Source: an uncultured Actinomycetota bacterium
GTDB taxonomy: Bacteria > Actinomycetota > Actinomycetes > Mycobacteriales > Jatrophihabitantaceae
Reading direction: 5' to 3'
DNA: 24,000 nt
Assembly (NCBI GenBank): GCA_963748415.1
Contig: CAVVJA010000017.1
Location: forward strand, 28,854 to 52,853
The translations under genes were made by a program, and so were the position numbers. Positions 3,690 to 21,075 of this stretch are shown piece after piece; the stretch's first letter is position 1, and every line of letters begins with the position of its first letter. The notes under the pieces were generated by a model, which was not told where the DNA came from, did no database searches, and was given only the letters and a program-made list of their open reading frames with translations.

Positions 3690-3715
3690 GACGTCGCTCC
3701 GTCCGGAGTGGCGGG

Positions 3716-3916
3716 TTATCTCGGGGATTCGGCTATGCGCAAGGCCAGAGCTGGGCAAGCCGCTACCGTCCGTCGCTCGGCTCGGTCGTCGACCGGAGCA
3801 CCGCGCCGGCCAAGCAGAATGGGAAATCCCCATTCGTCTCGGACGAACTGTTCCGGCAGGAGTTCGGCGCACAGCCCGTGGCCATCGCAGCGCGTCCAGT
3901 CGATCTCGATCGTCAT
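3716..3916 (-). CDS. small ferredoxin (3Fe-4S/4Fe-4S single-cluster type)
   Basis: 66-aa ORF. 'CDGHGLC...' followed by '...ACPALAL' gives the CxxHxxC...CP pattern of small actinobacterial ferredoxins. Its start ATG 3916-3914 overlaps the upstream stop as ATGA (plus strand tcat 3913-3916). Confidence 0.7.
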   Translation of the reverse strand: MTIEIDWTRCDGHGLCAELLPEQFVRDEWGFPILLGRRGAPVDDRAERRTVAACPALALRIAESPR

Positions 3917-5163: not shown

Positions 5164-5735
5164 CGGGTTGCCTCGATCGGGACCATGGCGCGGCGCACGT
5201 AGTCGCGGCGAGCGAGCGAGACGAGGCGGGCCGTGATGGCAGCGAGCACCCCGACCAGGCAGACCAGGAACAACGCGTCGACCCAGCCCTGAACGACATC
5301 GGTGCCCGACTGGAAGCCGTGGATTATCGCGGCAGCCCATCCCAGGTAGGCCAGCGCGTGGAGCCCCCGCCAAACGCGGATGGCCTGCGGCGAACGGGCA
5401 AGTCGCCCTCGGCCGAGGCCGAGTGCGCTCACGGCGAGGAACACGTACGCGGCAACCGAGCCGAACGCCACCGAACCCGGTCGATAACTGGACTGGAAGG
5501 GTATGAGAGCGCCGAGGATGCCGACATGCGCTTTGGCGTCAGCCAGGATCGCCGTGATGTGCACCGCAAGGAGTGCCACCCCTAGGGCGGCAGCTGCGCG
5601 ATGCGCGTACTGGACGACGATCCGCCGCGCCGGGTTCGGGCTCGGCATCGAGACCAACGCCCCGAGCGCGGTCGCCGCGCTGAGCGCCACGAGAGCGGCC
5701 AGGCCGGCCCCGCGAGCGGTATACCAGAGCGTCAT
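5160..5735 (-). CDS. ferric-reductase-like / MsrQ-like transmembrane domain protein (putative di-haem b membrane electron conduit), TM domain only
   Basis: Part of ORF 5160..5771. About 6 hydrophobic helices carry paired histidines ('YAHRAAAALGVALLAVHI', 'GLHALAYLGWAAAIIHGF'), as in ferric-reductase TM domains. I chose ATG 5735-5733 (MTLWYTARG), which overlaps the ApbE stop as ATGA (5732-5735). Confidence 0.65.
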   Translation of the reverse strand: MTLWYTARGAGLAALVALSAATALGALVSMPSPNPARRIVVQYAHRAAAALGVALLAVHITAILADAKAHVGILGALIPFQSSYRPGSVAFGSVAAYVFLAVSALGLGRGRLARSPQAIRVWRGLHALAYLGWAAAIIHGFQSGTDVVQGWVDALFLVCLVGVLAAITARLVSLARRDYVRRAMVPIEATR

Positions 5736-6727
5736 GACAGCGCCGCTTCCAGGCCGACGGTGGGCCACCACGCGGTTGCCACGATGGTGCCGTCGCGAGC
5801 GACGAGCCGGGCGGCAAGCCTACGGGCGGTGAGCCAGTCGAGCGCCGCACCGCCGAGCACGATCGCCGCCGTGCTCGCGGTGTTGGCCGCAAGAGCTGAC
5901 TGGGCGTGCACGGTGACCGTGCGCCATGGTCCGTCGGCGGGCGCGCCGGTCGTGGGATCGACGATGTGGTGCATCGGTTGGCCGGCCCGCGTCCAGCGCC
6001 GGACCGTCGTGGTTGACGTCGCCAGGCCGCCGTGCCGCACGAGGACTAGCTGTCCCGGAGCGCCGGCCCGTTCCGCAACGAGCACATTCCAGCCGGGGGC
6101 ATTGCCATGAACGGCGAGGTCGCCGCCGATCTCCACCAGCACCGCGGTGCGATGACGGCGGGACAGCACAAGGGCGGCGAGGTCGGCCAGGTGAGCCTTG
6201 GCGGTTGCGCCCAGGTCCAGCGCGGTACCGGGCGGCACGGTCAACAGGTCGGCCTCCCGATCCAGAAGCACGTCGTGCCAACCCGCCTGCGGCGCAAGCG
6301 GGTGAACCGGATCGCTCGAATCCGCGACGGCGCGGATGTCCCGGTCGTAGCCGATGCGTCGCATGGCCAGGCCGACCGTCGGATCCACCACGCCACCGGT
6401 GACGGCGGCCGCGTCCAGGGCGACCCGCACGAACTCGACGAGGAGCGCGGGCACCGGCGTCGGCCGACCCGTGTTGGCGTTGGCGCGCGACAAGGCTGAG
6501 TCGGGGCGGAAGCGACTGGCGGTGCGGTCGACGAGGTCGAGCAGTGCGGTGAGATCGCGGGCCGCGGCGTCGCGAGCGGTCGGATCGGCGACGATCAGCC
6601 GCACCATGCAGCTCCACGCCTGTTGGACGTGCGTGCACTGGGCCAGCGTCGTGGCGTCCACATCGGCCGTGCTGGGCGTCCAGGTGGCTGGGCCCGGGCT
6701 GACTGCCGGGTCGAGGGTGCTCGTCAT
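5732..6727 (-). CDS. apbE: FAD:protein FMN transferase (ApbE family)
   Basis: 331-aa ORF. 'DSALSRANA', 'VDPTVG', 'ALDLGATAKAHLADLAA' and 'VEIGGDLAV' resemble conserved ApbE blocks. The start ATG 6727-6725 overlaps the upstream stop as ATGA (6724-6727). Confidence 0.75.
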   Translation of the reverse strand: MTSTLDPAVSPGPATWTPSTADVDATTLAQCTHVQQAWSCMVRLIVADPTARDAAARDLTALLDLVDRTASRFRPDSALSRANANTGRPTPVPALLVEFVRVALDAAAVTGGVVDPTVGLAMRRIGYDRDIRAVADSSDPVHPLAPQAGWHDVLLDREADLLTVPPGTALDLGATAKAHLADLAALVLSRRHRTAVLVEIGGDLAVHGNAPGWNVLVAERAGAPGQLVLVRHGGLATSTTTVRRWTRAGQPMHHIVDPTTGAPADGPWRTVTVHAQSALAANTASTAAIVLGGAALDWLTARRLAARLVARDGTIVATAWWPTVGLEAALS

Positions 6728-7077
6728 GATCCGTTACTCCCTGCTGCTGCAGCATTGCCCTGGTTGGTCGAGCCGATGCCGCTGGTGCTGTTGTCGGACG
6801 ACGCTCCGGGCGTCGGGGTGCTGCTCGCTCCGCTACTCGACGAACCTGGCGTGGTGGTCGTCGCGGACCCGGCGGCGGACCCCGTGGTGGCCGTCGACGT
6901 GGAGCCCGACGTGTCTGCCGAGGCGCCGGTCGCGGCGGAATTGGCAACTCCGGCCACGAGCGTCGCGCCGAGGGCCGCACCCGCCGTCGCGACGCCGGCC
7001 GCCGTGAATGTGGCGCGGCGCAACACGCGATTCGGTCGCTTGGGGGGTGGTGTCGTTGTCATGCGTACGACGATCAC
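6724..7077 (-). CDS. small secreted low-complexity Ser/Thr/Gly/Ala-rich protein with an RR-containing signal peptide; first gene of the operon
   Basis: 117-aa ORF (GTG 7077; alternative ATG 7062). The N-terminus 'KRPNRVLRRATFTAAGVATAGAALGATLVAGVANSAA' looks like a Tat/Sec signal peptide. The remaining ~70 residues are almost only S/T/G/A/P/N and include TGAS (6919-6930) and SGAS (6823-6834). The coding call rests mainly on the ATGA coupling to apbE and the signal-peptide-like start. Confidence 0.5.
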   Translation of the reverse strand: MIVVRMTTTPPPKRPNRVLRRATFTAAGVATAGAALGATLVAGVANSAATGASADTSGSTSTATTGSAAGSATTTTPGSSSSGASSTPTPGASSDNSTSGIGSTNQGNAAAAGSNGS

Positions 7078-7171: not shown

Positions 7172-7218
7172 GATGATCTTTGAGATATGGGCGCTATTGA
7201 GCCTGTTGCAAAATTGCC
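7172..7218. repeat. left terminal inverted repeat of the IS1182-family element
   Basis: Aligned by eye to the reverse complement of 12687-12732. Shared blocks are GATGATCTT, GAG, GAGCCTGTTGC and AATTG, with a 2-nt length difference. Confidence 0.6.
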
Positions 7219-7976
7219 GCGCGCCTCTGCGGGTTGATCTTGGGTGCGCCACGAGCGCAGAGAGGGGTCGCCGTAGGAGATCTCTTGATGCGGTGCTGTG
7301 CAGGTGATGAAGGATTGCTGGCCCTTCGGCGTCGCCCTGCGGGGGGAGGCGTCAAACCGCCTCATGCTGCGTTGGTTGGTGACCGTCGTGGTGAGCGATG
7401 AGGAAAAGGCGCACTTTGATGCGTCAGGTGGGGATCGGGAAGGCGAGCGTGAGCGAACCGCTGAGGACGCGTCGAAACAACTGGATGACATCAAAACCGG
7501 GGAGGCTAAGAGTCTCCGGGATGAGCCTGGCGGGTGCCCGCTGATTGGCCAGGCGGTGTCCGGCGTGAAGGCGGCGCGAGCCCGGTCTGCGGCTCCTGCA
7601 CGGAACGTGGGGTGCGCCGGGATAAACCGGCAGGAGGAAAGGGATGAGAACGCCCGACATCGAAGGAGTAGCGATCCACGATGGCCCCGAGTCATGCGTC
7701 GACGTCCGTGAGGGCGGCGGCGAAGCGTTGACAGGGGTACGTGCAGGCCGAGCTATTGAGCCGCGAAATCACAGTTCGGGGTGCCGACGTCGTCTCACGA
7801 GACGGAAGGCCACATCGCCGGCGGCGTTAGCGCGAGCCGTTTGGTGGACCCCGCGCGGTCTGAGAACCTGGCATGTACGGAGTCCTTCTGCGCGAGAACC
7901 GGGAGGTCCCACTGCTCGCCCGTCCGGATGATCACCGGGCGGGCCGCTCAGGGAAGGCTGAGGCGGTAAGCCTGGG

Positions 7977-9521
7977 ATGAACGAGCGTGGGAAGTCAGAT
8001 GGGCCCGTAGTACCGACGAAGCCGCCGAACAAGGCCGGGGAAGCGGCCGCGGAGGTGGTGGAGGGAAGGCGCCCGGCCGAGGGGAACACGGCCGGCAAAA
8101 CGCATCCCGGACGCAGAGCCGGGCAAGGCGCGCCAAGCGGGCTGGATCGTGTACGTGAAGTAGCACGAACAGACAAGGATGCACGGTTCACGGCGCTGCT
8201 GCACCACGTCAACGTCGACCGTCTGCGGGCGGCCTACCGGGCGATCAGCCCGAAGGCCGCGCCGGGGGTGGACGGGGTGACGTGGGCAGCCTACGGGCAG
8301 GATCTGGAGGACAACCTTCAGGACTTGCACCGGCGGCTGCACGCAGGCAGCTACCGGGCAAGGCCGTCGCGGCGTGTCCTACATCCCGAAGGCGGACGGG
8401 CGGCAGCGGCCGCTCGGCATCGCCACGCTGGAGGACAAGATCGTCCAGCGGGCCGTCGTCGAGGTGCTCAACGCCGTCTACGAGGCGGACTTCCTCGGCT
8501 TCTCTTACGGGTTTAGGCCGGGACGCAACCCGCATGACGCGTTGGATGCGCTCACGGTCGGGATCTAGCGGAAGAAGGTGAACTGGGTGCTCGACGCGGA
8601 CATCCGCGACTTCTTCACCAGGATTGATCATGGCTGGTTGAAGAGGTTCCTCGAGCATCGAATCGCGGACAAGCGGGTCCTGCGGCTGATCGATAAGTGG
8701 CTGAGCGCGGGGGTCATCGAGGATGGGAACTGGTCGGAGACGAGGAGGGAACACCGCAGGGGGCATCGGTATCACCGTTGCTCGCCAACGTGTACCTCCA
8801 CTACGTCTTCGACCTGTGGGCCGAATGGTGGAGACGCCGGCACGCGCGCGGCGACGTGATCATCGTGCGCTGGGCGGACGACTTCATCGTGGGCTTCGAG
8901 CACCAAGATGATGCGAGGCGGTTCCTGAGCGAGCTTCGCGAGCGGTTCGCGAAGTTCGGGCTGGAGCTACATCCGGACAAGACGCGGCTGATCGAGTTCG
9001 GGCGGTTCGCCGCCCAGAATCGGCAGGCGCGGGGCCTCGGGAAACCGGAGACGTTCGACTTCCTGGGCTTCACGCACATCTGCGGGAACACGCGGAACGG
9101 GCGGTTCTGGGTGCGGCGTATCACGATCTCGAAGCGGATGCGGGCAAAGCTGCGAGAGGTCAAGGACGAGCTCAAGCGGCGCCGACATCAGCCCATCCCC
9201 GATCAGGGACGGTGGCTGGCGAGCGTAGTGCGGGGACACCGCACCTACTACGCCGTGCCAGGCAACAGCGAAGCGGTGCCACCTTCCGCACCCAGGTGAC
9301 CAGGCACTGGCACGAGGCGCTGGAGCGCCGCAGTCAGCGCACCGGATGAACTGGGACCGGATGGACCGCCTCGCGACGCGATGGCTGCCGCCCGCCCGCG
9401 TAGTGCACCCTTACCCGAGGCGCGCTTTCGCGTTCGCACCCGAGGCAGGAGCCCAGTGCGGTAGTACCGCACGCTGGGATCTGTGCGGGGGGCCGCCCGC
9501 AAGGGCGGTCCCTACCGCGAT
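7977..9521 (+). pseudogene. group II intron reverse transcriptase/maturase, disrupted (at least 4 frameshifts and 1 in-frame stop)
   Basis: RT sequence is spread over ORFs 7977..8516 ('[33 protein letters not shown]'), 8374..8568 ('[26 protein letters not shown]...[12 protein letters not shown]', ending in TAG 8566-8568), 8578..8859 ('NWVLDADIRDFFTRIDH', same frame as the previous piece), 8697..9299 ('GTPQGASVSPLLANVYLHY...VRWADDFIVGF...LHPDKTRLIEF') and 9346..9609 ('NWDRMDRLATRWLPPARVVHPYP'). Confidence 0.8.
9449..9521 (+). ncRNA. group II intron domains V and VI (inner intron 3' end)
   Basis: DV: GAGCCCAGUGCGG-loop-CCGCACGCUGGGAU with the AGC triad at 9450-9452. DV has a UAGUA-type (non-GNRA) loop. 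DVI: GCGGGGGGCCGCCC-GCAA-GGGCGGUCCC(UA)CCGC, with a bulged branch-point A at 9514. Confidence 0.7.
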
Positions 9522-9747
9522 AAGGCGGGTGCCGACACGGCCGCCGCGTGTTGTGAGGCATGGGGTGGTGAGAGGGAGCGCGTCGTACGGCGGAATCCGG
9601 AGACGCTGAGTACCGTCGCGGCGCCTGCTGGCGGACCGGCTCGTAGTAGCGGTGAAGCCCTGTAATGGGGGTGGAGCGAAGGGGCCGGCTCATCGATGGA
9701 TTTGTTCGCGCGAGCAACCGGGATCGAGAGGTTCTGGGAGGAGACGA

Positions 9748-11019
9748 GTGGGCAGGCCAGGTCAGGCTGAAAAGTCGTTTGATATTCCGAAGCAACTGGT
9801 GTGGGAGGCGTACGAGCGAGTCAAGGCGAACAAGGGTGCCGCCGGGGTGGATGGGCAGTCCATCGCCGGCTTCGAGGCCGATCTGCAGAACAATCTGTAC
9901 AAGATCTGGAATCGGATGTCGTCGGGGACCTACTTTCCGCCTGCGGTGCTGGCAGTGGAGATACCCAAGACCGGTAGCGGTGCGGGCACGAGGGTGCTCG
10001 GGGTGCCGACTGTCGCGGATCGGGTGGCGCAGACGGTGGCGGCGCTGACGCTGGAACCGCGGACGGAGTCGATTTTTCATTCTGACTCCTACGGGTACCG
10101 GCCAGGGCGCAGCGCGCTGGATGCGGTGGCGGTGTGCCGCACGCGGTGCTGGAAGAAGGCGTGGGTCATCGACCTTGATGTGGCCGCGTTCTTCGACAGC
10201 GTGCCGTGGGACCTGATGGTCAAAGCGGTCGAAGCCAACATCACCACCGAGCAGCGTTGGGTGCTGCTGTACGTGAAGCGGTGGCTACAAGCTCCGCTGC
10301 AGTTACCTGACGGCACGGTGCGGCAGCGGGACCGGGGGACCCCACAAGGGTCATCGATCTCGCCCGTACTGGCGAACCTGTTCCTGCATTACGCGTTCGA
10401 TTCGTGGCTAGCGCGCGAGTTCCCAACGGTGGAGTTCGAGCGGTACGCCGACGACGCGGTGGTGCATTGCGTGACCCAGCGGCAGGCACAGCAGGTGCTG
10501 GCCGCGCTCACGGCGAGGATGGCCGACGTCGGGCTGCGGCTGCACCCCGACAAGACCAGGATCGTGTACTGCAAGGACGGAGACCGGCGTCGCGAGCAGC
10601 ATGAGCACACGTCGTTCACCTTCCTCGGGTTCACGTTTACCCTGCGGCAGGCGCGGGGCAAGCACGGGCTGTTCAGCTCGTTCATGCCCGCGGCCAGCCG
10701 ACAGGCCCTCGCCGAGATGGGTCAGCGGGTTCGTCGGTGGCGGCTGCACCGGTGGGTCCAACGGGACCTGGCCGAGATCGCCGCGCAGATCAATCCGATC
10801 GTGGCGGGCTGGATCAACTACTACGGCCGGTTCTACCCGTCGCGGATAGTGCCCCTCCTGCAGCGCATCAACACCTACCTGATGCGCTGGGCAGGCATGA
10901 AATACAAACGGCTGCGGTCCTACAAACGCTTCAAGGCGTGGTGGTTCGGGATCATCGATCGAGACCCCGACCTGTTCGCGCACTGGCGCATGGTTCGCAC
11001 GTTCGCCGGACTGCGATGA
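9748..11019 (+). CDS. group II intron reverse transcriptase/maturase, intact, compact (423 aa), no endonuclease domain
   Basis: Part of ORF 9652..11019. I chose GTG 9748, preceded by GGGAGGAG (9735-9742). Motifs: 'GAAGVDGQS', 'GVPTVADRVAQ', 'SYGYRPGRSALDA', 'GTPQGSSISPVLANLFLHY', 'RYADDAVVHC', 'LHPDKTRIVY', and the maturase/X motif 'IVAGWINYYGRFY'. The protein ends shortly after the X domain. Confidence 0.9.
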   Translation: MGRPGQAEKSFDIPKQLVWEAYERVKANKGAAGVDGQSIAGFEADLQNNLYKIWNRMSSGTYFPPAVLAVEIPKTGSGAGTRVLGVPTVADRVAQTVAALTLEPRTESIFHSDSYGYRPGRSALDAVAVCRTRCWKKAWVIDLDVAAFFDSVPWDLMVKAVEANITTEQRWVLLYVKRWLQAPLQLPDGTVRQRDRGTPQGSSISPVLANLFLHYAFDSWLAREFPTVEFERYADDAVVHCVTQRQAQQVLAALTARMADVGLRLHPDKTRIVYCKDGDRRREQHEHTSFTFLGFTFTLRQARGKHGLFSSFMPAASRQALAEMGQRVRRWRLHRWVQRDLAEIAAQINPIVAGWINYYGRFYPSRIVPLLQRINTYLMRWAGMKYKRLRSYKRFKAWWFGIIDRDPDLFAHWRMVRTFAGLR

Positions 11020-11022
11020 GAA

Positions 11023-11096
11023 GAGCGGAGTGACGGGAGACTGTCACGCTCCGTTCTGTGGGAGCCCGGGGGTGCGATCCCCCCGGGCCACCCGAC
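11023..11096 (+). ncRNA. group II intron domains V and VI (outer intron 3' end)
   Basis: DV: GAGCGGAGUGACGG-GAGA-CUGUCACGCUCCGUUC (34 nt, AGC triad, GNRA loop). DVI: GGGAGCCCGGGGG-UGCGA-(U)CCCCCCGGGCC(A)CCC with a bulged A at 11090, then GAC. Confidence 0.75.
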
Positions 11097-11115
11097 TGTG
11101 GTTGAGGATCGGTGT

Positions 11116-12647
11116 GTGGCGAAGGGGTTTCGGCCGGTGCAGCGGGATCAGGTGTTTCTGTTGCCGCCGGATATGCGGCAGTGGCTGCCGGCTGATCATC
11201 TGGTGTGGTTTGTGTTGGACGCGGTGGCCGGCCTGGATCTGGCGGCGTTTTGGGGGCGACGTCGGCTCGGCGGGGCTGGGCGGGCGGCGTATGACCCGGC
11301 GATGCTGGTCGGCTTGTTGATCTACGGGTACGCGGTTGGGCAGCGGTCGAGTCGGCAGATCGAGCGGCTGTGTCACACCGATGTGGCGTTTCGGGTCGCC
11401 TGCGCGCAGGACGTGCCCGATCATGTGACGATCGCCCGGTTCCGGGCCGAGCACGAGACCGGCCTGGGCGGGTTGTTCGAGCAGGTGTTGATCGTCTGCG
11501 CTCGGGCCGGGATGGGGCGGGTCGGCGCTGTGGCCCTGGACGGCACCAAGATCGCCGCGAACGCTGCGCTGAGCGCCAACCGCGGCGAGTCGGCGCTGCG
11601 GGGGCTCGCCGCTGGCATTCTGGCCGAGGCTGCGGCGGTCGATGCCGCGGAGGATGAGCTGTTCGGGGATCGGCGGGGTGATGAGCTGCCGCCGGAGTTG
11701 GCTGACCCGGACGGGCGGGCGGCGCGGATCCGGCGGTTGCTTGATGACATCGCCGCCGAACGCGAGGCCAAGTCGGCCGACAGCGAACGGACTCGGCGGG
11801 CCGCCGAGCGGGTCGCGCAGGCCCGCGACAGGCTAGCCGACACTCGGGCCGAGGTCGGCCGCCGCAACGCCGAGCGGGCCCGCTGGGAGCAGCTGATCCG
11901 CGCCGGGGGCGGCAAAGGACTACCCGGCCGCGCGGTGCCGGTCGAGCAGCACTACGACGTCCGGGCTGCCGCCGCCCGACTGGCCCACGCGCAGGCGAAT
12001 CTGGCCCGCGCCGTGCACCCGCAATCAGCAGCGCCCGGCACGCCCGGGGAAGCCAAACGCAACCTCACCGACCCCGACTCGCGAATCATGCCCACCCGGC
12101 ACGGCTGGGTGCAGGGCTACAACTGCCAACTGGTGGTCAGCAGCGACTACCTCATCCTGGCCGCCGACCTGCACAACCGCCCCGGTGACGTCACCAGCTA
12201 CCAGCCGGTGATCGACCAGGCCGCCCAGGCCGCCCGCGCGATCCGCCGCGCCACCGGCCGCCGCAGCCGCATCGGCACCGTGCTCGCCGACGCCGGCTAC
12301 GCCAGCACCACCAACCTCACCTGCCCCGGACCGGACCGGCTCATCGCTCTCGGCACCCGACACCACCACCACACCGCCGCCCGCGACAACCCCGCCCACG
12401 GGCAACCACCCCACGACGCCACCCCGTGGCAACGCATGCACCACCGACTACGAACACCCGCCGGCGCCGCCGCTACCGACACCGCGCCGCCATCGTCGAA
12501 CCGGTCCACGCCCACCTCAAAGACCGCCGCGCTCTCCGCGCCTTTGCCCGCCGCGGACTCACCGCCGCCCGCAGCGAATTCCGCTTCGCCGCCGCCGTCA
12601 CCAACCTCCTGCGACTCCGCACCGCCCTCGCCAACACGGCAACATGA
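11116..12647 (+). pseudogene. IS1182-family DDE transposase with one frameshift near the C-terminus
   Basis: ORF 11098..12777 (probable GTG start at 11116, '(M)AKGFRPVQRDQVFLLPPDMRQWLPADHLVWFVLDAV...AYDPAMLVGLLIYGYAVGQRSSRQIERL...ALDGTKIAANA...VLADAGYAS'). It loses the conserved tail around 12461-12475 in a GCC-rich run. The tail 'YRHRAAIVEPVHAHLKDRRALRAFARRGLTAARSEFRFAAAVTNLLRL' continues in ORF 12426..12647. Confidence 0.8.
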
Positions 12648-12686
12648 TCAACAACAGAGTCCCAACCGCCACCGGCACCAACACGC

Positions 12687-12732
12687 AGCCAATTACGCAA
12701 CAGGCTCTATTGGCATTAACTCCAAGATCATC
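12687..12732. repeat. right terminal inverted repeat of the IS1182-family element
   Basis: Its reverse complement aligns with 7172-7218 (see the left IR). It ends about 20 bp downstream of the sensor-kinase stop codon (12752-12754). Confidence 0.6.
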
Positions 12733-12751
12733 CGTGGGGAGCCTCAGGCGA

Positions 12752-14314
12752 CTATGGGGCGCCCAGATAAAGGGTGACTTGCGCGCCGCCGGTTGGTGAG
12801 CTGCCGGTATCCATCCAGCCGCCACTGGCCTGCGCGCACCGGCGCGCGATCGACAACCCCAGGCCACTTGACCCTCGGTCGCTGCGTCCGCGGATCCCCG
12901 CTCCGTCGGGCAACCCGGGACCGGCGTCGCTTACGGTCAGCTCGGTCAGGCCGGACAGACTTGACAACCGCGGGCTGAACGCGGCTGCGCCACCCGACGG
13001 GCCCGGCGCGCTGACCGCACCCTCGGGGCTCAAGACTGCATTGAATCGGGCCGGTCCGGCGGCCGAGCCAGGCGCGAACGGCCGGCCCGCCGGTGCATCC
13101 AACGATGCCGCGGAGTCCGGGCCAACAAAGCCGGTCGGGCCCGCGCCTACCGAGCCGGTCAGGTCCCACGAGGTCGACGGGTTCGGGGATGCCGAGCGCA
13201 GCGACACGGCGAACGGCGTGCCTTCGGGGGTGTGCGCCACGACATTTTCGATCAGCGCGTCGACCGCCGCGGCCAGATCTTCGGCCGATGCGCGGACGAT
13301 GAGCGGACCGTCCGGAAGTGTCAGCGTGCATGCCCGTTCCTGCTCGTCGGTCAGGGCGGACCAGAACGCAACTCGATCGCGCACGACCGCGGTCGCGTCG
13401 GCGGACGGCAACCGGCCTTCTCGTTGCGGCCTCCGGGCGGCATGGATGACGGCAGTCAGGGTTCGCTCGAGGGCGGACGCCTGGGTCGCGATCCGCTCGC
13501 GCTCGGCCGGATCGCGCAGCGACTCCGACTCCAACCGCAGCGCGGTCAGTGGCGTTCGCATCCGGTGAGAGAGGTTCGCGACCGTCTCCCGTTCTTCGGC
13601 GACCAGCTCATCGATCCGGTCGGCGAGCTGGTTGAGCGATGCCCCGACTTCAGCCACCTCACGCGGCCCGTTCGTCGGGGCCCGAGCGGTGACGTCCCCG
13701 GCGGTCAGCAGGTGCGCGGTCTCGGCCGTCTGGACGAGGGGGCGAACGATGCGACGAGTCAGCAACTCGGCGCCGAACACGCTCACCACCAACAGCGCGA
13801 GGCTGCCACCGACGACCAGCATCAACCGCCCGACTTCACCGCTGTGCAAGGCAGCATTCGACACGTAGACCTGCACGAAGTACATGCCGTCGGGCAGCCG
13901 GAGGGCGAGCTCGGCGACCTGGCCACCGGGAATCTGACGTAATTGGGCCTGTTCGCCACCTTCTCCGCCGGGTGGTGGCCGGTTGTTCTCTGTCTCGTTC
14001 GGGGGCGACTCCGCTGGCGAGCCGTGGCCTGGCCCGGCGGCGCCGGGCGGCGCGGTGCCGAGCACGGTCCCGTCGGGCGTGCGCACGCTGGTGCGGCGGT
14101 CCTTGTTCTGCGCGAGCGCCTTCAAGTAGGACTCGATGGCGGCCTGATTGTTGTTCGTGCGAATGGTCAGCGCCACGTTGTTCGCTTGTAACACGGCCGC
14201 GCGCTCCGCGTTCTGGACCACGGAGGAGCGAATGAGCAGCGCCACCGGGATGGCGAACGCCAGGATGACAAGCGTCGTCAGCCCGACGACCAGGGCCATG
14301 ATCTGGCGGCGCAT
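12752..14314 (-). CDS. two-component sensor histidine kinase (2 TM, HAMP, HisKA, HATPase_c with a long low-complexity insertion)
   Basis: 520-aa ORF. TM1 'MALVVGLTTLVILAFAIPVALLI', TM2 'LMLVVGGSLALLVVSVFGAELL', H-box 'NLSHRMRTPLTAL', N-box region 'LIENVVAHTPEGT', G1 'VSDAGPGLP', G2 'GSSGLGLSIA'. ATG 14314 lies 1 nt after the response-regulator stop. Confidence 0.85.
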   Translation of the reverse strand: MRRQIMALVVGLTTLVILAFAIPVALLIRSSVVQNAERAAVLQANNVALTIRTNNNQAAIESYLKALAQNKDRRTSVRTPDGTVLGTAPPGAAGPGHGSPAESPPNETENNRPPPGGEGGEQAQLRQIPGGQVAELALRLPDGMYFVQVYVSNAALHSGEVGRLMLVVGGSLALLVVSVFGAELLTRRIVRPLVQTAETAHLLTAGDVTARAPTNGPREVAEVGASLNQLADRIDELVAEERETVANLSHRMRTPLTALRLESESLRDPAERERIATQASALERTLTAVIHAARRPQREGRLPSADATAVVRDRVAFWSALTDEQERACTLTLPDGPLIVRASAEDLAAAVDALIENVVAHTPEGTPFAVSLRSASPNPSTSWDLTGSVGAGPTGFVGPDSAASLDAPAGRPFAPGSAAGPARFNAVLSPEGAVSAPGPSGGAAAFSPRLSSLSGLTELTVSDAGPGLPDGAGIRGRSDRGSSGLGLSIARRCAQASGGWMDTGSSPTGGAQVTLYLGAP

Positions 14315-14315
14315 A

Positions 14316-15008
14316 TCACCCTTCCACGTCCGAGGGGGCCATCAGCCGAACCCCGACTCCGCGCACGCTGTCCAGGTAGCGCGGTTCGGCCGCCGTCTCC
14401 CCGAGCTTGCGGCGCAGCCAGGACAGGTGGACGTCGACGGTGCGGTCGGAGCCGCCCTACGCGTGCCGCCAGACCTCGGCGAGCAGGTCGCGCTTGGTCA
14501 CCACCTCGCCCGGCCGCCGGGCCAGCGCGAGCAGGAGGTCGAACTCCTTGCGGGCCAGCTCGACCGGGCGCCCGTCCAGGGTGACCTCCCGGCTGCGCTC
14601 GTCGATCGACCAGGCCGCCGACCGTGATCGGCTCCTCGACGAGCGGCGCCGCCGCGGCGCAGCACGGCGCGGACCCGGGCGTCGAGCTGGGCGGCGCTGA
14701 ACGGCTTGACCACGTAGTCGTCGGCGCCGGCGTCGAGTGCCTGGACGATGCTCGGCGTCGTCGTCGCGGGCGGTGGCCACGATCGATCGGGACGTCGCTG
14801 GCCGCCCGGAGCATCGAGAGCACGTCAGCCCCGTCGATGTCCGGCAGTCCGAGGTCGAGCAGGACGACGTCGGGTCGCTGGGCCACGGCCGACGTGAGGG
14901 CGCCCATGCCGGTGTCGACCGAGTTGACGGTATGCCCTGTTCCCGCAGGGCGCGCATCAACGCCGAGCGGATTGCCGCGTCGTCCTCAACGAGCAGGATC
15001 TGGACCAC
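14316..15008 (-). pseudogene. OmpR-family response regulator, frame-disrupted (about 5 frameshifts and an in-frame TAG)
   Basis: Recognisable sequence hops between three minus-strand frames: 'MVQILLVEDDAAIRSALMRALREQG', then '[40 protein letters not shown]', '[11 protein letters not shown]', '[19 protein letters not shown]', '[12 protein letters not shown]', and '[50 protein letters not shown]'. A TAG follows (14457-14459), then my own translation gives 'GGSDRTVDVHLSWLRRKLGETAAEPRYLDSVRGVGVRLM...' up to TGA 14316-14318. Confidence 0.8.
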
Positions 15009-15019
15009 GGGAGCGAAGG

Positions 15020-15385
15020 TCAGTTCGGTTGGTCGGATCCGCCGTCCGGGTGGTCGCCGCGCGGCTGGTTGCGCAGGTTGCGCAGGAACTCGGGGTCGTC
15101 ATCCGGGGCGACGGGCCGGCGGGGTGGGGCGGCGGGTCGGCCGAACTGGCCCGCCCAGCCTGCCCGCGGAGCGGCGGTGGGAGCCGGTGGCACGTCGGGC
15201 TTGCGCGGGCGCCCGACGGTGAACCAGAGCACGGTGCCCACGATGTTGAGCACCACGATCACGATCACCCAGACCGGTTTCGGGAGCAACCGGATCCGCT
15301 CCCGCGGCGCGGATATGGAATCGAAGAGTGCATAGAGCCAGAAGCCGAACGCGACGAGGGCGAGGAGGCCACCGAACCGGATCAT
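15020..15385 (-). CDS. small membrane protein with a PLD-nuclease-N-terminal-type (PLDc_N) two-helix domain and a Pro/Arg-rich tail
   Basis: 121-aa intact ORF. 'LLALVAFGFWLYALFD...LPKPVWVIVIVVLNIVGTVLWF' is the typical PLDc_N small-protein pattern. ATG is at 15385-15383. Confidence 0.65.
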   Translation of the reverse strand: MIRFGGLLALVAFGFWLYALFDSISAPRERIRLLPKPVWVIVIVVLNIVGTVLWFTVGRPRKPDVPPAPTAAPRAGWAGQFGRPAAPPRRPVAPDDDPEFLRNLRNQPRGDHPDGGSDQPN

Positions 15386-15409
15386 GGCTTCAGCCTAGGC
15401 TTGCTTGCT

Positions 15410-16892
15410 GTGGGTTTCGTTGATCTCCAGGACTTCTTGCGCGCATTGGAGCGTGAGGGGGACCTGGCGAGGGTCGACACGCCGGTCGACCCGGACCTCG
15501 AGGTGGCGGCGATCGTCCCGCGGGTGGTGCGCGATCGGGGCCCGGCCCTGCTGTTCGAGCAGCCGACCCGCGGCCGGCTGCCGCTGGCGATCAACGTCTT
15601 CGGCACGACGCGGCGGATGGCGATGGCGCTCGGCGTCACAGTCCCTCGACGAGATCGGCGAGCGGATCGGCGAGCTGCTCAAGCCCGAGCTGCCGCGCGG
15701 TGTCGGCGGCTTGCGCGACGCGCTCGGCAAGGTCGTGCAGCTGCGGGCGGTGCCGCCCCGGCAGGTGAAGGTCGCGCCGTGCCAGGAGATCGTGCTCAAG
15801 GGCGACGAGGTCGACCTGTCGATCGCTGCCCGGCTGAAGGCCTGGCCCGAGGACGGCGGCGTCTTCCTCAACTTCGGCCTGACCCACACCAAGCACCCCG
15901 AGACCGGCAAGCGCAACCTCGGCCTGTACCGGCTGCAGCAGCACGACGAGCAGCACGGTCGGCATGCACTGGCAGATCCACAAGGACTCCACCGCGCACC
16001 ACGCGGTGGCCGAGCGGCGCGGCGAGCGGCTGCCGGTCGCCATCGCCTTCGGCTGCCCGCCCGCGGTCACCTACGCGGCGTCCGCGCCGCTGCCGGGCGA
16101 CATCGACGAGTACCTGTTCGCCGGGTTCCTGCGGGCGAGCGGGTGGAGATGGTCGACTGCCTCACCGTGCCGCTGCAGGTGCCGGCGCACGCGCAGGTCG
16201 TCCTCGAGGGCTGGGTCGAGCCGGGCGAGCGGCTGCCCGAGGGCCCGTTCGGCGACCACACCGGCTTCTACACGCCGGTCGAGCCGTTCCCGTTCCTGCA
16301 CGTCGACGTGCATGACGATGCGGCGCGACCCGATCTACCAGTCGATCGTCGTCGGCCGGCCACCGCAGGAGGACGGGCCCGATCGGGCAAGGCCACCGAG
16401 CGGATCTTCCTGCCGCTGATCAAGCTGACCGATCCCGGACATCGTCGACTACGACCTGCCCGAGGCGGGCGTGTTCCACAACTGCGTCATCGTCTCGATC
16501 GACAAGCGGTACCCCAAGCACGCGCAGAAGGTGATGAACGCGATCTGGGGCGCCGGACTGATGTCGCTGACCAAGCTGATCGTCGTCGTCGACGACGACT
16601 GCGACGTGCACGACTACGCCGAGGTCGCGTGGCGGGCGTTCGGCAACGTGGACTACGCGCACGACCTGCTGCTCACCGAGGGCCCGGTCGACCACCTGGA
16701 CCACGCGTCGTACCAGCAGTTCTGGGGCGGCAAGGCCGGCATCGACGCGACCCGCAAGCTGCCGGGCGAGGGCTATCGCCGCGACGGGGGCTGGCCGGAG
16801 GAATGCGTGGTCGACCCCCGATCACGCAGCTGGTCGACCGCCGCTGGGCCTCGTATCGCATTCCGCGTGGGGCCGACGGAGGTGCTGGGTGA
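15410..16892 (+). pseudogene. UbiD-family decarboxylase of the futalosine menaquinone cluster, frame-disrupted (about 7 frame changes)
   Basis: Conserved UbiD sequence is readable only by hopping frames. (GTG 15410) 'GFVDLQDFLRALEREGDLARVDTPVDPDLEVAAI...INVFGTTRRMAMALGV'. Shift ~15645: 'SLDEIGERIGELLKPELP...GLTHTKHPETGKRNLGLYRLQ'. Shift ~15950: 'VGMHWQIHKDSTAHH...IDEYLFAGFLR'. Shift ~16135: 'GERVEMVDCLTVPLQVPAHAQVVLEGW...GPFGDHTGFYTPVEPFPFLHVDV'. Shift ~16308: 'MTMRRDPIYQSIVVGRPPQEDGP'. Shift ~16383: 'GKATERIFLPLIKLT'. Shift ~16435: 'PDIVDYDLPEAGVFHNCVIVSIDKRYPKHAQKVMNAIWG...'. Shift ~16815: 'ITQLVDRRW...' to TGA 16890-16892. Confidence 0.8.
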
Positions 16893-17821
16893 CTGAGCCA
16901 AATCGCGCCACATTGCCCCACAGTCCGGGCGCAAACCGAGGCCGGGTCGCGAAGTTCCTCCGGCTGGTGATGATCGAGCACTCGGTCTTCGCGCTGCCGT
17001 TCGCCTACATCTCCGCGCTGACCGCGATGTGGCAGCTGACCCGATCGGTCCACTGGTGGGAGCTGCTGCTGATCACCATCGCCATGGTGTCGGCGCGCGG
17101 ACGTTCGCCATGGCCGCCAACCGGATCCTCGACCGGCGCATCGACGCGCCGAACCCGCGCACCGCACAACGCGAACTGGTCACCGGCGAGCTCGATCTGC
17201 GTGCCGCCTGGATCGGCGCGGTCGTCGCACTTGATCGTGTTCCTCGCGAGCGCCGCCGCGCTGTCGTCGCTGCTGCCTGCTGCTCGCGCCGCTCGCCGTG
17301 GTGCCGCTGGTGGTCTACCCGTACGGCAAGCGGTTCACCGACTTTCCGCACGCGATCCTGGGCATGGCCCAGTTGATCGGGCCGGTCGGGCGCCTGGCTG
17401 GCGGTCACCGGCGAGGTGTCGTGGACCGGCCGGTGGTGCTCGGCCTCGGGGTGGGCATGTGGATCGGCGGATTCGACCTCATCTACGCCTGCCAGGACGC
17501 GGAGGTCGACCGGCGCGATCGGTGCGCGGTCGTCCCGGCCCGATTCGGCGTCCCGGTCGCGCTGCAGGCGTCGACGGTCGTGCACGTCGTGACGTTCGGC
17601 GCGTTCGTCTGGTTCGGCGTCGCCGCTCGGGCTCGAATGGTTGTGGTGGATCGGCGTGCTGCTCACCGCCGGCGTGCCTTCGTCTACGAGCATCGCGATC
17701 GTGCGGCCAGACGACCTGCCGGCGGGTCAACCGGGCGTTCTTCACCGCCAACGGCTTCATCGGCATCGGCCTGTTCGTGTTCGCCCTCGCTGATCTGATC
17801 GCGCAGGGCCTCCGCTGGTAG
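16889..17821 (+). pseudogene. UbiA-family prenyltransferase (MqnP-like, 1,4-dihydroxy-6-naphthoate polyprenyltransferase type), frame-disrupted (at least 8 frame changes)
   Basis: GTG 16889 overlaps the UbiD-like stop (GTGA). Conserved blocks sit in different frames: 'VAKFLRLVMIEHSVFALPFAYISALTAMW' (16889 frame), 'TFAMAANRILDRRIDAPNPRTAQRELVTGE' (17029 frame), 'PLAVVPLVVYPYGKRFTDFPHAILGMAQLIGPVG' and 'GVGMWIGGFDLIYACQDAEVD' (17298 frame, with a short out-of-frame 'AWLAVTGEVSWTG' between them), 'LGLEWLWWIGVLLTAG' (17029 frame, read by me), and 'RVNRAFFTANGFIGIGLFVFALADLI' (16889 frame) to TAG 17819-17821. Confidence 0.75.
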
Positions 17822-17835
17822 GCGTAGGTGCAGCG

Positions 17836-18499
17836 ATGACGAGGCTGCCGTGGATCGTCGGCGTGTCCGGCGCGTCCGGGACCCCGTACGCCCGGCGGTG
17901 CTTCGCGGCTCCTTGATGCCGGGCTGCCGGTGGATCTCGTCGTTTCGCGTGCGGCCCGGCTGACCATGCTGGACGAGACCGGCGTTCGCTTCCGAGACGC
18001 CCATTGGGCGACGATCTGGCCAGCTGGCTGGATCGCGAGGTGGCCGACGCGGATCTCGTCTACTGGCCGCCGGCGACCTCGCCGCGGGCCCCTCGTCGGG
18101 GTCCTACCGGACCCGCGGCATGGTCGTGGTTCCCGGCATCCACCGCGGCGGTGGCGGGCATCGCGATCGGGCTGTCCAAGGACCTGCTGCAACGCGCGGC
18201 CGACGTCACACTCAAGGAAGCGGCGGCCGCTGGTCGTTGTTCCGCGCGAGACGCCCTACACCCGGGCGACGCTGCAGCACTTGCTCGCGCTGCACGATGC
18301 GGGCGCTGTGGTGCTGCCGGCAAGCCCCGGCTTCTACAGCGCACCGGCATCCGTAGAGCAGCTCGTCGACTTCGTCGCGGCCAAGGTGCTGGACGTGCTG
18401 GGCGTCCCGCACGACTTGATGACCCGGTGGACCGGCCAGCTCGGCGCCGCGCTAACTGATCATCACGGGGCGTCGCCGTCAGCCCGTCCCGTACCCTGA
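17836..18499 (+). pseudogene. UbiX-family flavin prenyltransferase, frame-disrupted (at least 5 frame changes)
   Basis: ATG 17836 'MTRLPWIVGVSGASGTPYA' runs into TGA after about 26 codons. The sequence continues in other frames: 'DLVVSRAARLTMLDETGVRFRDAHW' (17930 frame), 'DDLASWLDREVADADLVYWPP' (18004 frame), 'DLAAGPSSGSYRTRGMVVVP' (18120 frame), 'ASTAAVAGIAIGLSKDLLQRAADVTLKE' (18004 frame), and 'RRPLVVVPRETPYTRATLQHLLALHDAGAVVLPASPGFY...' (17930 frame) to TGA 18497-18499. Confidence 0.75.
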
Positions 18500-18503
18500 C
18501 GGC

Positions 18504-19649
18504 ATGCCGCTGACGCAATCCCGCAAGGCCGAGCTGACCGAGAAAATCGCGGCCGGGGAACGCCTCGACTACGCGGACGGCGTTGATCTGTATGCCGCGG
18601 ACGACCTGGCCTGGCTGGGTGGTCTCGCCCACGGCGTCCGGACCGCCAAGAACACTGACATCACCTACTTCAACGTCAACCGGCACCTGAACCTCACCAA
18701 TGTCTGCAGCGCCTCGTGCGCGTACTGCTCGTTCGAGCGCAAGCCGGGACAGGCCGACGCGTACACGATGCGGGTCGAGGAGGCCGTCGCGAAGGCGCTC
18801 GCCATGAAGGACGACGGCATCACCGAGCTGCACATCGTCAATGGCCTGCACCCCACGTTGCCGTGGCGGTACTACCCCAGAGTGCTCCGCGAGCTGAAGG
18901 CGGCCCTGCCGCAGGTGGCGCTGAAGGCGTTCACGGCGACCGAGGTCCACTGGTTCGAGAAGATCAGCGGGCTACCGGCCGACGAGATCCTCGACGAGCT
19001 GATCGACGCCGGCCTCGAGTCGCTCACCGGCGGCGGCGCGGAGATCTTCGACTGGGACGTCCGGAAGCAGATCGTTGATCACGACACCCATTGGGAGGAC
19101 TGGTCGCGGATCCACCGGCTGGCCCACAGCAAGGGGCTGCGCACTCCGGCCACGATGCTGTACGGCCACATCGAGGAGCCGCGGCACCGCGTCGACCATG
19201 TGCTCCGGTTGCGCGGGCTGCAGGACGAGACCGGCGGCTTTGTCGTGTTCATCCCGCTGCGGTTCCACAACGACAACAACCGGCTGTCTCACCTGCCAAT
19301 GGCGCAGCCAGCGGATGTGCTGCGCACGTTCGCCGTCAGCCGGTTGCTGCTCGACAACTTCGATCACGTCAAGGTCTTCTGGGTGATGCACGGGTTGTCA
19401 ACCTCCCAGCTGGCCTTGAACTTCGGCGCCGACGACATGGATGGCTCGGTCGTCGAATACAAGATCACCCACGACGCGGACGGCTTCGGCACCCCCGACA
19501 AGTTGACCCGGGAGGACCTGCTCGGGCTGATCCGCGATGCCGGGTTCCGCCCGGTGGAGCGAAACACGCGCTACCAGGTCGTTCGCGAATACGACGGGCC
19601 GGTACCGCTCGCGGTCCGGCGAGCCGAGCCGCAGGCGGTCTGGGCGTGA
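18504..19649 (+). CDS. mqnE: aminofutalosine synthase (radical SAM), futalosine-pathway menaquinone biosynthesis
   Basis: Intact 381-aa ORF. 'YFNVNRHLNLTNVCSASCAYCSFERKPGQADAYTM' (CxxxCxxC radical-SAM cluster in the MqnE-type context) and 'GGAEIF', 'ATMLYGHIE', 'FIPL'. It sits beside UbiD/UbiA/UbiX-like genes, as I recall for the Streptomyces SCO4490-4494 arrangement. Confidence 0.85.
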   Translation: MPLTQSRKAELTEKIAAGERLDYADGVDLYAADDLAWLGGLAHGVRTAKNTDITYFNVNRHLNLTNVCSASCAYCSFERKPGQADAYTMRVEEAVAKALAMKDDGITELHIVNGLHPTLPWRYYPRVLRELKAALPQVALKAFTATEVHWFEKISGLPADEILDELIDAGLESLTGGGAEIFDWDVRKQIVDHDTHWEDWSRIHRLAHSKGLRTPATMLYGHIEEPRHRVDHVLRLRGLQDETGGFVVFIPLRFHNDNNRLSHLPMAQPADVLRTFAVSRLLLDNFDHVKVFWVMHGLSTSQLALNFGADDMDGSVVEYKITHDADGFGTPDKLTREDLLGLIRDAGFRPVERNTRYQVVREYDGPVPLAVRRAEPQAVWA

Positions 19650-20161: not shown

Positions 20162-20620
20162 GTGACCGCGCCACATCCGCAGACCCGCATCGGCTATGCA
20201 GAGCGCTCCGCCGCTCAGGAGGCCCTCGACGAGCATCTGACCGCCGGACGGCTCGACCCCGACGAGTACGCCGACCGGTACGCCGCAGCTGAGATAGCCC
20301 GCACCCAGGCCGAGCTCGATGCGCTGTTCACCGACCTGCCGGCGCCGCATCCGTCGACCGGGCACTCGACTCTTCCGGTGAACGCCGGCTCTGGCGGCTA
20401 TCGGCGGGACTGGTTTAGCTACATCCCGGAGTCGTCGGTCGGTCGCATCGCCGCACTCATTGCCGTGGTGGTGGCCGTGATATTGGTGTTTCCGTTGGTC
20501 ATCGCGGCTGTCGTGCTCTACTTCGTCGTTCTCCCGCGGCTCACGTCTGGCCGACGGTGGGGCTATCCGGGCGGTCCGATGTCGGATTGGGCCGGGCGTT
20601 CACGACAATGGCGCCGATGA
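20162..20620 (+). CDS. DUF1707 (SHOCT-like N-terminal) domain membrane protein, paralogue 1
   Basis: 152-aa ORF. 'RIGYAERSAAQEALDEHLTAGRLDPDEYADRYAAAEIARTQAELDALFTDLP' is the DUF1707 signature, followed by a TM segment 'IAALIAVVVAVILVFPLVIAAVVLYFVV'. Confidence 0.7.
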   Translation: MTAPHPQTRIGYAERSAAQEALDEHLTAGRLDPDEYADRYAAAEIARTQAELDALFTDLPAPHPSTGHSTLPVNAGSGGYRRDWFSYIPESSVGRIAALIAVVVAVILVFPLVIAAVVLYFVVLPRLTSGRRWGYPGGPMSDWAGRSRQWRR

Positions 20621-21075
20621 ACAGTTCGCCCAGCGGGGCGGACGGATCGCCTGAGCCGCACATCCGCATCGGCAACGACGAGCGCGCTGGCGCGATGCAG
20701 GCGTTGGACGAGCACCTATCCGCCGGGAGGCTCGAACCCGACGAATACGGCGACCGGGTCGCGAAGGTCAGCGTGGCGCGCACCCGTGAGGAGCTCGAGG
20801 TGCTGTTCGTCGATCTCCCGGAGCCGCACTCGCTGTCGGGCGCGCAGCTAGCGGCGATCAGGCATGCACCCGCTCCGCGCCGTCACGAGCCATCCGATGC
20901 CGACCGTGCTGACCGCGTTTTTGGCGGGCGGGCCGGTGCGATTGTCGTAGCGCTAGCCCCGATCATCGCGCTGGCCCTGTTCTTTGCTACAAGATGGTGG
21001 GTGTGGTTCCTGCTCGTCCCGGCGGTCGCAGTGATCGTCTACGGCGGTCGTGGCGAGCGACGTCGCGGCCGATAG
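20608..21075 (+). CDS. DUF1707 domain membrane protein, paralogue 2
   Basis: Part of ORF 20557..21075. 'RIGNDERAGAMQALDEHLSAGRLEPDEYGDRVAKVSVARTREELEVLFVDLP' plus C-terminal TM segments. I chose ATG 20608, which overlaps the end of paralogue 1 by 13 nt. Confidence 0.65.
   Translation: MAPMNSSPSGADGSPEPHIRIGNDERAGAMQALDEHLSAGRLEPDEYGDRVAKVSVARTREELEVLFVDLPEPHSLSGAQLAAIRHAPAPRRHEPSDADRADRVFGGRAGAIVVALAPIIALALFFATRWWVWFLLVPAVAVIVYGGRGERRRGR

Follow-up and report, generated by a model that had tools for sequence, protein, structure and literature searches.

Genes at the Locus

The window (the whole stretch of DNA analysed, 24,000 nucleotides) holds a response-regulator gene (RR) and UbiD-, UbiA- and UbiX-like genes between long intact neighbours. 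The main features are as follows, with lengths in amino acids (aa).

12752..14314, minus strand: intact histidine kinase, 520 aa, left flank
14316..15008, minus strand: response-regulator gene of the OmpR type, 230 aa in relatives, from Pfam and alignment
14355..14938, no strand: disturbed zone 1, from positions differing from all seven native-type relatives
15020..15385, minus strand: intact PLDc_N gene, 121 aa, a clean native island separating the two disturbed zones
15410..16892, plus strand: UbiD-family gene for a menaquinone biosynthesis decarboxylase (relatives have 492 aa), with 10 indels of one base each that add up to +4
15519..18479, no strand: disturbed zone 2, in which UbiD, UbiA and UbiX mix native with non-native alleles
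16889..17821, plus strand: UbiA-family prenyltransferase gene (relatives have 306 aa), with 11 indel events that add up to +12
17836..18499, plus strand: UbiX-like flavoprotein gene, 221 aa in relatives; six one-base indels, net -2
18504..19649, plus strand: intact MqnE-like radical SAM gene, 381 aa, right flank

These identities, including that of MqnA, had been proposed in an earlier note made from the sequence, and Pfam and the relatives bear all of them out. The gene order, RR / PLDc_N / UbiD-UbiA-UbiX-MqnE and further on MqnA, is the same in all close relatives, as are the Pfam domains. Full-length domains in the repaired translations and in close relatives, together with the synteny with mqnE and mqnA, place the three genes in the late steps of the futalosine pathway, and database sources label the UbiD homologue as “menaquinone biosynthesis decarboxylase”. 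In Streptomyces we take SCO4490-4492, which lie near mqnE and mqnA, to be the late futalosine-pathway genes of UbiD/UbiA/UbiX type.

The kinase, PLDc_N, MqnE, MqnA and the genes at 358-7077 give full-length Pfam matches. The long ORFs of the block, 15405-16892 (495 aa) and 16889-17821 (310 aa), match Pfam only in pieces lying in different frames, and these ORFs are misleading because a GC content of about 70% leaves few stops in any frame. The UbiA ORF is open from start to stop with garbled internal segments, and the raw ORF has no Pfam match. After frame repair UbiD, UbiA and UbiX become clean, family-typical proteins free of stops, UbiD being 88% identical to the native protein, and the repaired RR is 86% identical to the intact RR of the relative L081.

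Small Indels Confined to One Block

Alignment to intact orthologues, with positions called against the relatives L081 and L091, located 33 small indels in the window, all within 14611-18221, and one TAG. RR carries five 1-bp indels and one 3-bp deletion with a net sum of 0 (14611 +1, 14633 -3, 14653 +1, 14750 +1, 14786 +1, 14938 -1), and its TAG at 14457-14459 stands where all relatives have an invariant TGG. The 10 events in UbiD lie at 15638, 15825, 15835, 15954, 16135, 16310, 16381, 16388, 16431 and 16819; the 11 in UbiA at 17092 (+2), 17230, 17271, 17390, 17429 (+2), 17517, 17534, 17628, 17680 (+2), 17697 and 17718; the six in UbiX at 17895, 17911, 18013, 18075, 18136 and 18221. The earlier note, which followed peptide blocks across frames, had counted about five frame changes plus a TAG in RR, about seven in UbiD, at least eight in UbiA and at least five in UbiX, and alignment thus confirms its picture with somewhat higher numbers. 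Closely spaced compensating changes, also recognised there, are found as +1 at 17390 with +2 at 17429 and as +1/-1 at 15825/15835.

Comparison with relatives gave no frame-disrupting indel in the approximately 15 kb of other alignable window sequence, where each indel is either intergenic or a multiple of 3, and the kinase, PLDc_N, MqnE, MqnA and the genes at 358-7077 are indeed uninterrupted, as had been stated. A GC3 frame plot, tried as a means of locating the shifts, was too noisy at 90 nt and wrongly pointed to frame flips beyond the block, for which the alignments to relatives gave no support. Programmed ribosomal frameshifting or recoding does not fit the genes either, since every orthologue is a single ORF and each affected gene of the window carries 5-11 indels that shift the frame.

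Against L091 the window shows 28 indels, 19 insertions and 9 deletions, of 1-2 bp only. Runs of three or more identical bases contain only about 3 of the 28, and most inserted bases lack an identical neighbour, so that the classical homopolymer signature of Nanopore or 454 type is absent from this set; the earlier suggestion that some shifts fall in short G/C runs does not survive as a bias. The indels are enriched near GATC (8/28 vs. 11%, p = 0.01). We considered an error linked to GATC methylation and dropped it, because the enrichment is explained by a foreign third-position G kept before a native ATC codon, and a methylation effect is not needed.

Intact Relatives and a Unique Allele

Ten independent contigs with identical MqnE carry RR (230 aa), UbiD (492 aa), UbiA (306 aa) and UbiX (221 aa) all intact, and at least 22 independent contigs hold an identical copy of the MqnE protein. 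Over 15009-15409, the PLDc_N island, L091 and the window agree at all 401 nt (100%), and over 984 nt of MqnE they are 99.1% identical. In UbiD, UbiA and UbiX, where the 28 indels separate the two and the L091 genes are intact, identity is 87.8%, 88.4% and 94.9%, respectively. In total, 20 or more native-type contigs, including L091, have intact genes.

The allele of the window was searched for widely. Among 5.8 billion proteins the repaired UbiD has no match above 89% identity, nor above 92% in any 75-aa segment, and the frameshifted UbiD product found no full-length match in the protein search. The garbled UbiA ORF forms a singleton cluster, on one 107-kb NCBI/ENA contig. A 33-nt string of the window spanning two insertions had no exact match in the JGI metagenome contig collection, and a flexible pattern for the same region matched four JGI contigs, all of them uninterrupted native forms. 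Exact searches for the RR and UbiD fragments that Logan ERR12983021 contigs would be expected to encode, in window-like and in native-like form, found none on record. One apparent second frameshifted copy, the 551-aa UbiD P0003, turned out to be a more distantly related UbiD that contains an internal duplication and has no bearing on the problem.

Native and Foreign Alleles Are Blended

Besides the indels, RR, UbiD and UbiA show roughly three times as much divergence by substitution as the flanks do, a feature that the earlier note did not mention, and synonymous divergence in the block is likewise raised about three-fold. The window's own branch measures 8.4-9.2% in RR, UbiD and UbiA vs. 0.7-1.4% in the kinase, PLDc_N and MqnE, and positions differing from all seven native-type relatives are absent from 14945-15518. 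In the block, C<->G changes make up 36% of the spectrum, AT>GC outnumber GC>AT changes by 118 to 50, 53 of 290 changes neighbour another change, and the third-codon-position bias is retained; in the flanking genes G>A and C>T predominate.

The private bases of the window are common to 53-61% of distant relatives, vs. 10-20% for a control of bases private to L081; in the RR zone the available orthologues account for fewer of them (35%). In UbiD the window agrees with L081 only at 137 sites, with the non-native L025 only at 149 and with neither at 29, and the native and L025 states alternate at the scale of a few nucleotides. The gene sits on the internal path between lineages that differ by 19%, and its private branch measures only about 2%. 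Painting with k = 20 agrees with a blend, as the block has many 20-mers found only in non-native lineages. L025, the best candidate, was considered as a single foreign donor and rejected: it shares 83% of the UbiD private bases, yet it is frameshifted itself and only 88% identical overall. Among the loci and database proteins compared there is no clean foreign parent.

The indels are coupled to the same variant sites. The inserted base equals the allele of other lineages at the adjacent site in 16 of 21 real inserted bases (null 0.21), the p-value of 2e-5 having been computed on all 27 columns. Deletions remove a base where native and foreign sequences differ in six of seven cases (null 0.28; p = 0.002).

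Frame Breaks Follow the Assembly Technology

Of 71 instances of these genes in MFD Nanopore-only MAG loci, 10 have a broken frame, vs. 0 of 259 instances in short-read MAGs and isolates (Fisher p = 1.3e-7). The contig of the window contains an IS element and a group II intron, and the spanning of such elements within one contig is usual for long-read assemblies; its own platform and assembler are presumably of the Nanopore MAG type, to judge by the size of the contig, the NCBI/ENA source tags and what its nearest relatives are. MFD MAGs were assembled with metaFlye and polished once with Medaka (PMC12313526). Frameshift errors have been found to be more frequent in ONT soil assemblies, and inter-genomic repeats are known to cause difficulties in assembly (PMC13087279).

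Origin of the Block: Consensus Artefact or Real Allele?

Gene decay is almost certainly not the cause of the frameshifts, which we grade with the same firmness as an artefact. Judging from the consensus product, the block is very probably an artefact of metagenome assembly from long reads, most likely Nanopore reads only, in which native and non-native reads were blended. Within 14355-14938 and 15519-18479, native reads would have been mixed with reads or graph paths of other Actinomycetota that have homologous RR and UbiD-UbiA-UbiX genes, and the consensus step would then have produced a base-by-base blend of the two sets of alleles. Where both bases of a differing site were kept side by side a 1-bp insertion would arise, and where neither was kept a 1-bp deletion, which would yield the 33 small indels together with the spurious stop. 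The mixing may have taken place during repeat-graph collapse or during polishing. The organism itself almost certainly carries intact RR, UbiD, UbiA and UbiX, like the near-identical L091.

The earlier note had left two readings side by side, local assembly or base-calling noise and recent inactivation. The latter, a real pseudogenisation in situ in which the regulator and the late menaquinone genes were lost and now decay by mutation, would suit the clustering of frameshifts in functionally linked genes with intact neighbours and the one nonsense codon, but we give it hardly any credence. Flanks that are 99-100% identical to L091, whose own genes are intact, adjoin 5-12% divergence in the block; the private changes agree with what other lineages carry, and the indels are coupled to these foreign alleles; and relaxed selection cannot be the cause of a three-fold rise in synonymous divergence. 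The block spectrum is opposite to natural GC>AT-biased mutation, and the excess of insertions (19 vs. 9 deletions) with 1-2 bp events only and no larger deletions departs from the deletional bias and broad indel sizes of decaying genes. The disruptions were not reproduced in independent data of the same lineage, as the frameshifted allele was found in no other assembly searched. The noise reading was right in so far as it invoked an artefact. Its plain form, random base-calling errors in a low-coverage or poorly polished stretch without any foreign DNA, could appeal to the probable Nanopore source and to the 1-2 bp insertions and deletions typical of consensus errors, but such errors should ignore the alleles of other lineages, should not keep the third-codon-position bias of the substitutions nor avoid homopolymers, and would hardly leave repaired proteins so clean and family-typical, with no stops in UbiD, UbiA and UbiX; it is thus very unlikely.

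An import of foreign RR and UbiD-UbiA-UbiX by homeologous recombination, for example by conjugal micro-mosaic transfer, with frameshifts arising during or after the import, shares with the blended-consensus reading the 20-mers of non-native lineages and the position of the block between native and L025-type sequences, and it would also account for the sharp zone boundaries. We nevertheless regard a real mosaic as very improbable. The native and foreign states switch every few nucleotides, in place of contiguous near-identical donor tracts, and no donor reaches above 92% identity in any 75-aa segment; recombination keeps the frame, which 33 indels disturb here, and cannot put both alleles of a mismatch in tandem. 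Furthermore, four genes would have been inactivated at once in a lineage whose relatives all retain them, and frame breaks of the same kind are confined to one assembly technology. A physically real variant, in which a heteroduplex with a foreign RR and UbiD-UbiA-UbiX segment underwent error-prone processing, for example mismatch-directed cleavage and end joining, so that 1-2 bp indels formed at mismatches, is a still fainter prospect; if true, the late menaquinone module would be inactivated in one strain.

The localisation of the block, noted earlier as odd under either reading, is accounted for only partly by a blended consensus. The disturbed zones do lie in genes that other taxa also possess, and they leave out PLDc_N, which is lineage-specific. 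That said, the DNA similarity of MqnE to distant relatives is 82-83%, compared with 70-80% for UbiD-UbiA-UbiX, yet MqnE is untouched, and conservation alone was therefore rejected as a sufficient cause of the localisation.

Consequences for MAG-Based Inference

As biology the block has no consequence, the organism very probably having a normal intact late menaquinone module and regulator. The public MAG contig nevertheless contains 4 kb with four silently corrupted genes amid 20 kb of clean sequence. Because high GC keeps the corrupted ORFs open, UbiA even from start to stop, a check on ORF length would not reveal the damage, and such genes could be scored as present or as lost in a metabolic reconstruction. 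This is a warning for MAG-based metabolic inference. Private bases that match other lineages might serve as an artefact screen for long-read MAGs, and an inserted base equal to the foreign allele at a neighbouring site as a second signature.

Comparison with Known Systems

Compared with other late futalosine genes of actinobacteria, the copies in the window alone are frameshifted, and they become ordinary members after frame repair. The block resembles bacterial pseudogene clusters in having several frameshifts and one stop in adjacent linked genes with intact neighbours, and differs from them in that its disruptions are not reproduced in other assemblies while near-identical relatives are intact; neither its pattern of divergence nor its spectra of mutations and indels are those of decay. 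Homeologous-recombination mosaics, of which mosaic pbp genes and mycobacterial distributive conjugal transfer are examples, are likewise intermediate between two lineages with sharp outer boundaries; for the block, however, neither contiguous donor tracts nor a donor were found, and its frame is lost.

There is also a likeness to errors of long-read metagenomes (Nanopore, metaFlye/Medaka), where small ORF-breaking indels are confined to long-read MAG loci, and to collapsed inter-genomic repeats, in which conserved genes of co-occurring taxa are affected. The indels of the block are not of the classical homopolymer type, and it adds about 9% allele blending in the direction of other lineages and the tandem retention of both alleles where sites vary, a combined signature for which we found no description in the literature searched on long-read assembly errors. 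What marks the block as a very probable consensus artefact is the mixture of native and foreign alleles, the position of the indels at sites where the two differ, and the restriction of such frame breaks to one technology.

Gene Order and Close Relatives

With a GC content of about 70%, the window originates from a Jatrophihabitans-like actinobacterium, and its nearest relatives in the genome collection are soil MAGs, labeled Jatrophihabitantaceae or “uncultured Actinomycetota.” Its close relatives have a common gene order:

minus strand, first: mannosyltransferase, glycosyltransferase, ferredoxin, NuoF-like protein, hypothetical protein, ApbE
minus strand, after the ApbE group: kinase, then response regulator (RR)
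minus strand, after RR: PLDc_N
plus strand, after PLDc_N: UbiD, UbiA, UbiX, MqnE; MqnA further along

An MqnE identical to that of the window occurs on 10 independent metagenome contigs, and the neighbors are intact in 10 of 10 (RR 230 aa, PLDc_N 121 aa, UbiD 492 aa, UbiA 306 aa, UbiX 221 aa). Among the clean regions, divergence from L081, an intact relative carrying alleles of the window's own lineage (termed “native”), peaks in a tandem pair of DUF1707 paralogues at 20162-21075 (about 6%), which shows many non-synonymous changes and zero indels, and is thus probably fast-evolving rather than blended. In the homologous locus L093 (ENA ERZ27310481 k141_9248790), positions 349-2004 encode a 551-aa UbiD homologue in which both halves match the same part of UbiD in an overlapping manner, suggesting an internal duplication.

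Between ApbE and the kinase lies a 5.5 kb insertion (7199-12702) that is missing from all relatives compared (L001, L081-L090, L094, and L096-L098). Inverted repeats (GAGCCTGTTGC... / ...GCAACAGGCTC) mark its ends, together with a short duplication resembling CTATT, and it contains the following features:

7309-7429, 7647-7868, 11021-11096: group II intron RNA domains (Rfam matches)
9652-11019: intact RT/maturase
11098-12777: DUF772/DDE transposase

These sequence features give the insertion the appearance of an IS element into which a group II intron has moved. At 8238-9182, tblastn shows another RT-like coding region, read in frames 3/1/3 and sharing about 35% identity with the intact RT; it may represent an intron ORF that is degenerate or nested, or additional consensus errors in an element present in several copies.

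Frame Breaks and Their Placement

The earlier note described a block of frame-broken RR, UbiD, UbiA, and UbiX genes at 14316-18499; this was right, with the indels slightly undercounted, as alignment to L081 gives 33 that are window-specific. Long ORFs span the block in the ORF list, yet Pfam matches only fragments in different frames. Over the alignable 15 kb, 43 indel events separate the window from L081, 34 of them located at 14611-18221 and almost all of 1 bp, while those beyond the block either lie between genes or have lengths divisible by three. One of the 34, a difference of 17 bp at the junction of UbiD and UbiA, was left out as native-strain polymorphism, which leaves 33:

RR: 6 events plus a TAG
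UbiD: 10 events
UbiA: 11 events
UbiX: 6 events

The TAG in RR stands where all relatives have an invariant TGG. Against L091, a closer intact native-type relative, 28 indels were counted (16 of +1, 3 of +2, and 9 of -1), most of them outside homopolymers, contrary to the bias toward G/C runs that the same note had suggested. The junction itself (window 16886-16892; L081 8383-8395) differs from one native strain to another: a 13-nt spacer is present in L081-type contigs (seen as a 17-bp gap in the alignment), whereas the UbiD stop and UbiA start codons overlap (GTGA) in the window, L090, L091, and L095. This indel is real strain variation, outside the artefact.

Probable Blending of Native and Foreign Alleles

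The block is very probably a consensus in which native and non-native reads were blended, as judged from comparison of the sequences. Bases private to the window in UbiD, UbiA, and UbiX are carried by 53-61% of distant relatives, against 10-20% for L081-private changes used as a control; the window's private bases are non-random. In UbiD, 137 sites match L081 only, 149 match only L025 (a non-native lineage), and 29 match neither, and these classes alternate every few nucleotides. With a private branch of about 2%, the window UbiD thus falls along the internal path joining lineages that differ by 19%, a position unlike an extant gene and as would be expected of a blend. Painting with k=20 covered central UbiD with 20-mers exclusive to non-native loci of many lineages, and PLDc_N and the block edges were native. 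Among 5.8 billion proteins, none exceeded 89% identity to UbiD after frame repair, and no 75-aa segment of it found a match above 92%.

When the indels are read against native and foreign (other-lineage) sequences, a pattern of “tandem retention” appears:

Tandem retention at three insertions (window position; native; foreign; window)
16431; ACC-ATT; ACC-GTC; ACCGATC
17230; GCA-TTG; GCG-CTG; GCACTTG
17628; GCT-GGG; GCC-GGC; GCTCGGG

The inserted base equals the allele of other lineages at the adjacent site in 16 of 21 real inserted bases (null 0.21; p = 2e-5 over 27 columns, among them six stop-codon columns that are not real insertions). Six of seven deletions drop a base at a position that is variable between native and foreign (null 0.28; p = 0.002). 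Given a mixed pile-up, a consensus caller can output both bases, or neither. Weak GATC enrichment near the indels arises because a foreign third-position G is kept ahead of an ATC codon of the native sequence. The RR zone behaves in the same way as the UbiD-UbiA-UbiX zone.

Real pseudogenisation through in-situ decay, one of the two readings offered in the earlier note, is contradicted by several independent tests. Flanking genes diverge from L081 by 2-5% and PLDc_N by 2.5%, whereas RR, UbiD, and UbiA diverge by 11.6, 12.0, and 11.4%, still mostly at synonymous sites (in UbiD, 113 synonymous and 64 non-synonymous changes); a rise at synonymous sites is not an effect of relaxed selection. With L001 as the outgroup, the excess falls on the window's own branch (8.4-9.2% vs. 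0.7-1.4% in conserved flank genes), and the spectrum there is unnatural: C<->G accounts for 36%, AT>GC changes number 118 vs. 50 for GC>AT, and of 290 changes, 53 adjoin another one, whereas G>A and C>T predominate in the flanks. Decisive against decay is L091, which matches the window at all 401 nt of 15009-15409 (100% identity) and at 99.1% of 984 nt in MqnE, yet has intact, native-type UbiD, UbiA, and UbiX genes from which the window differs by 12, 12, and 5%. Moreover, the inserted bases track alleles of other lineages, and the base of another lineage is unknowable to any mutational process. Plain random noise is likewise contradicted by several independent tests, since random error does not favor synonymous sites, as the block does, and the private bases are non-random; a real mosaic allele is also contradicted by several independent tests.

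Both disturbed zones (14355-14938 and 15519-18479) fall within genes common to other taxa and bypass the lineage-specific PLDc_N. MqnE is clean though as conserved as the zone genes, and gene sharing with other taxa does not fully explain the zone boundaries.

Frame Breaks in Independent Assemblies

The garbled UbiA ORF (310 aa) forms a singleton cluster, seen on a single NCBI/ENA contig of 107,330 bp. A full-length counterpart of the frameshifted UbiD product is missing from the protein database; the product does match about 30 further truncated UbiD singletons (P0122-P0151) on long ENA/NCBI contigs. These truncated products are 200-400 aa long with incomplete domain sets and resemble out-of-frame UbiD translation; one of them sits on the contig of locus L010, from the Nanopore-only soil MAG set MFD. 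This suggests that frameshifted UbiD genes recur in long-read metagenome assemblies. A 33-nt window string across two insertions gave zero matches in the JGI metagenome contig collection, and a flexible pattern for it found four contigs there, all uninterrupted.

Counting frame breaks in the RR, UbiD, UbiA, UbiX, MqnE, and MqnA genes across the analyzed loci gave 10 in 71 gene instances in MFD Nanopore-only MAGs vs. 0 in 259 in short-read MAGs and isolates (Fisher p = 1.3e-7). The broken MFD loci are L008, L010, L025, L026, and L029 (UbiD/UbiA/UbiX/MqnE/MqnA regions). L025 and the window have in common a 21-nt string containing one of the window's “insertions.” The window's contig spans both the IS element and the group II intron, as is typical of long-read contigs. 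Elsewhere, the exact kinase and exact PLDc_N of the window were seen only in two short Logan contigs of run ERR12983021 (1745 and 1585 bp), which stop inside or near the first disturbed zone, at about 14426 and 14703; an assembly graph that branches in this area would fit these ends. The MFD MAGs were built with metaFlye and one Medaka round (PMC12313526), and recognized problems include inter-genomic repeats and, for soil assemblies from ONT reads, a higher number of frameshift errors (PMC13087279).
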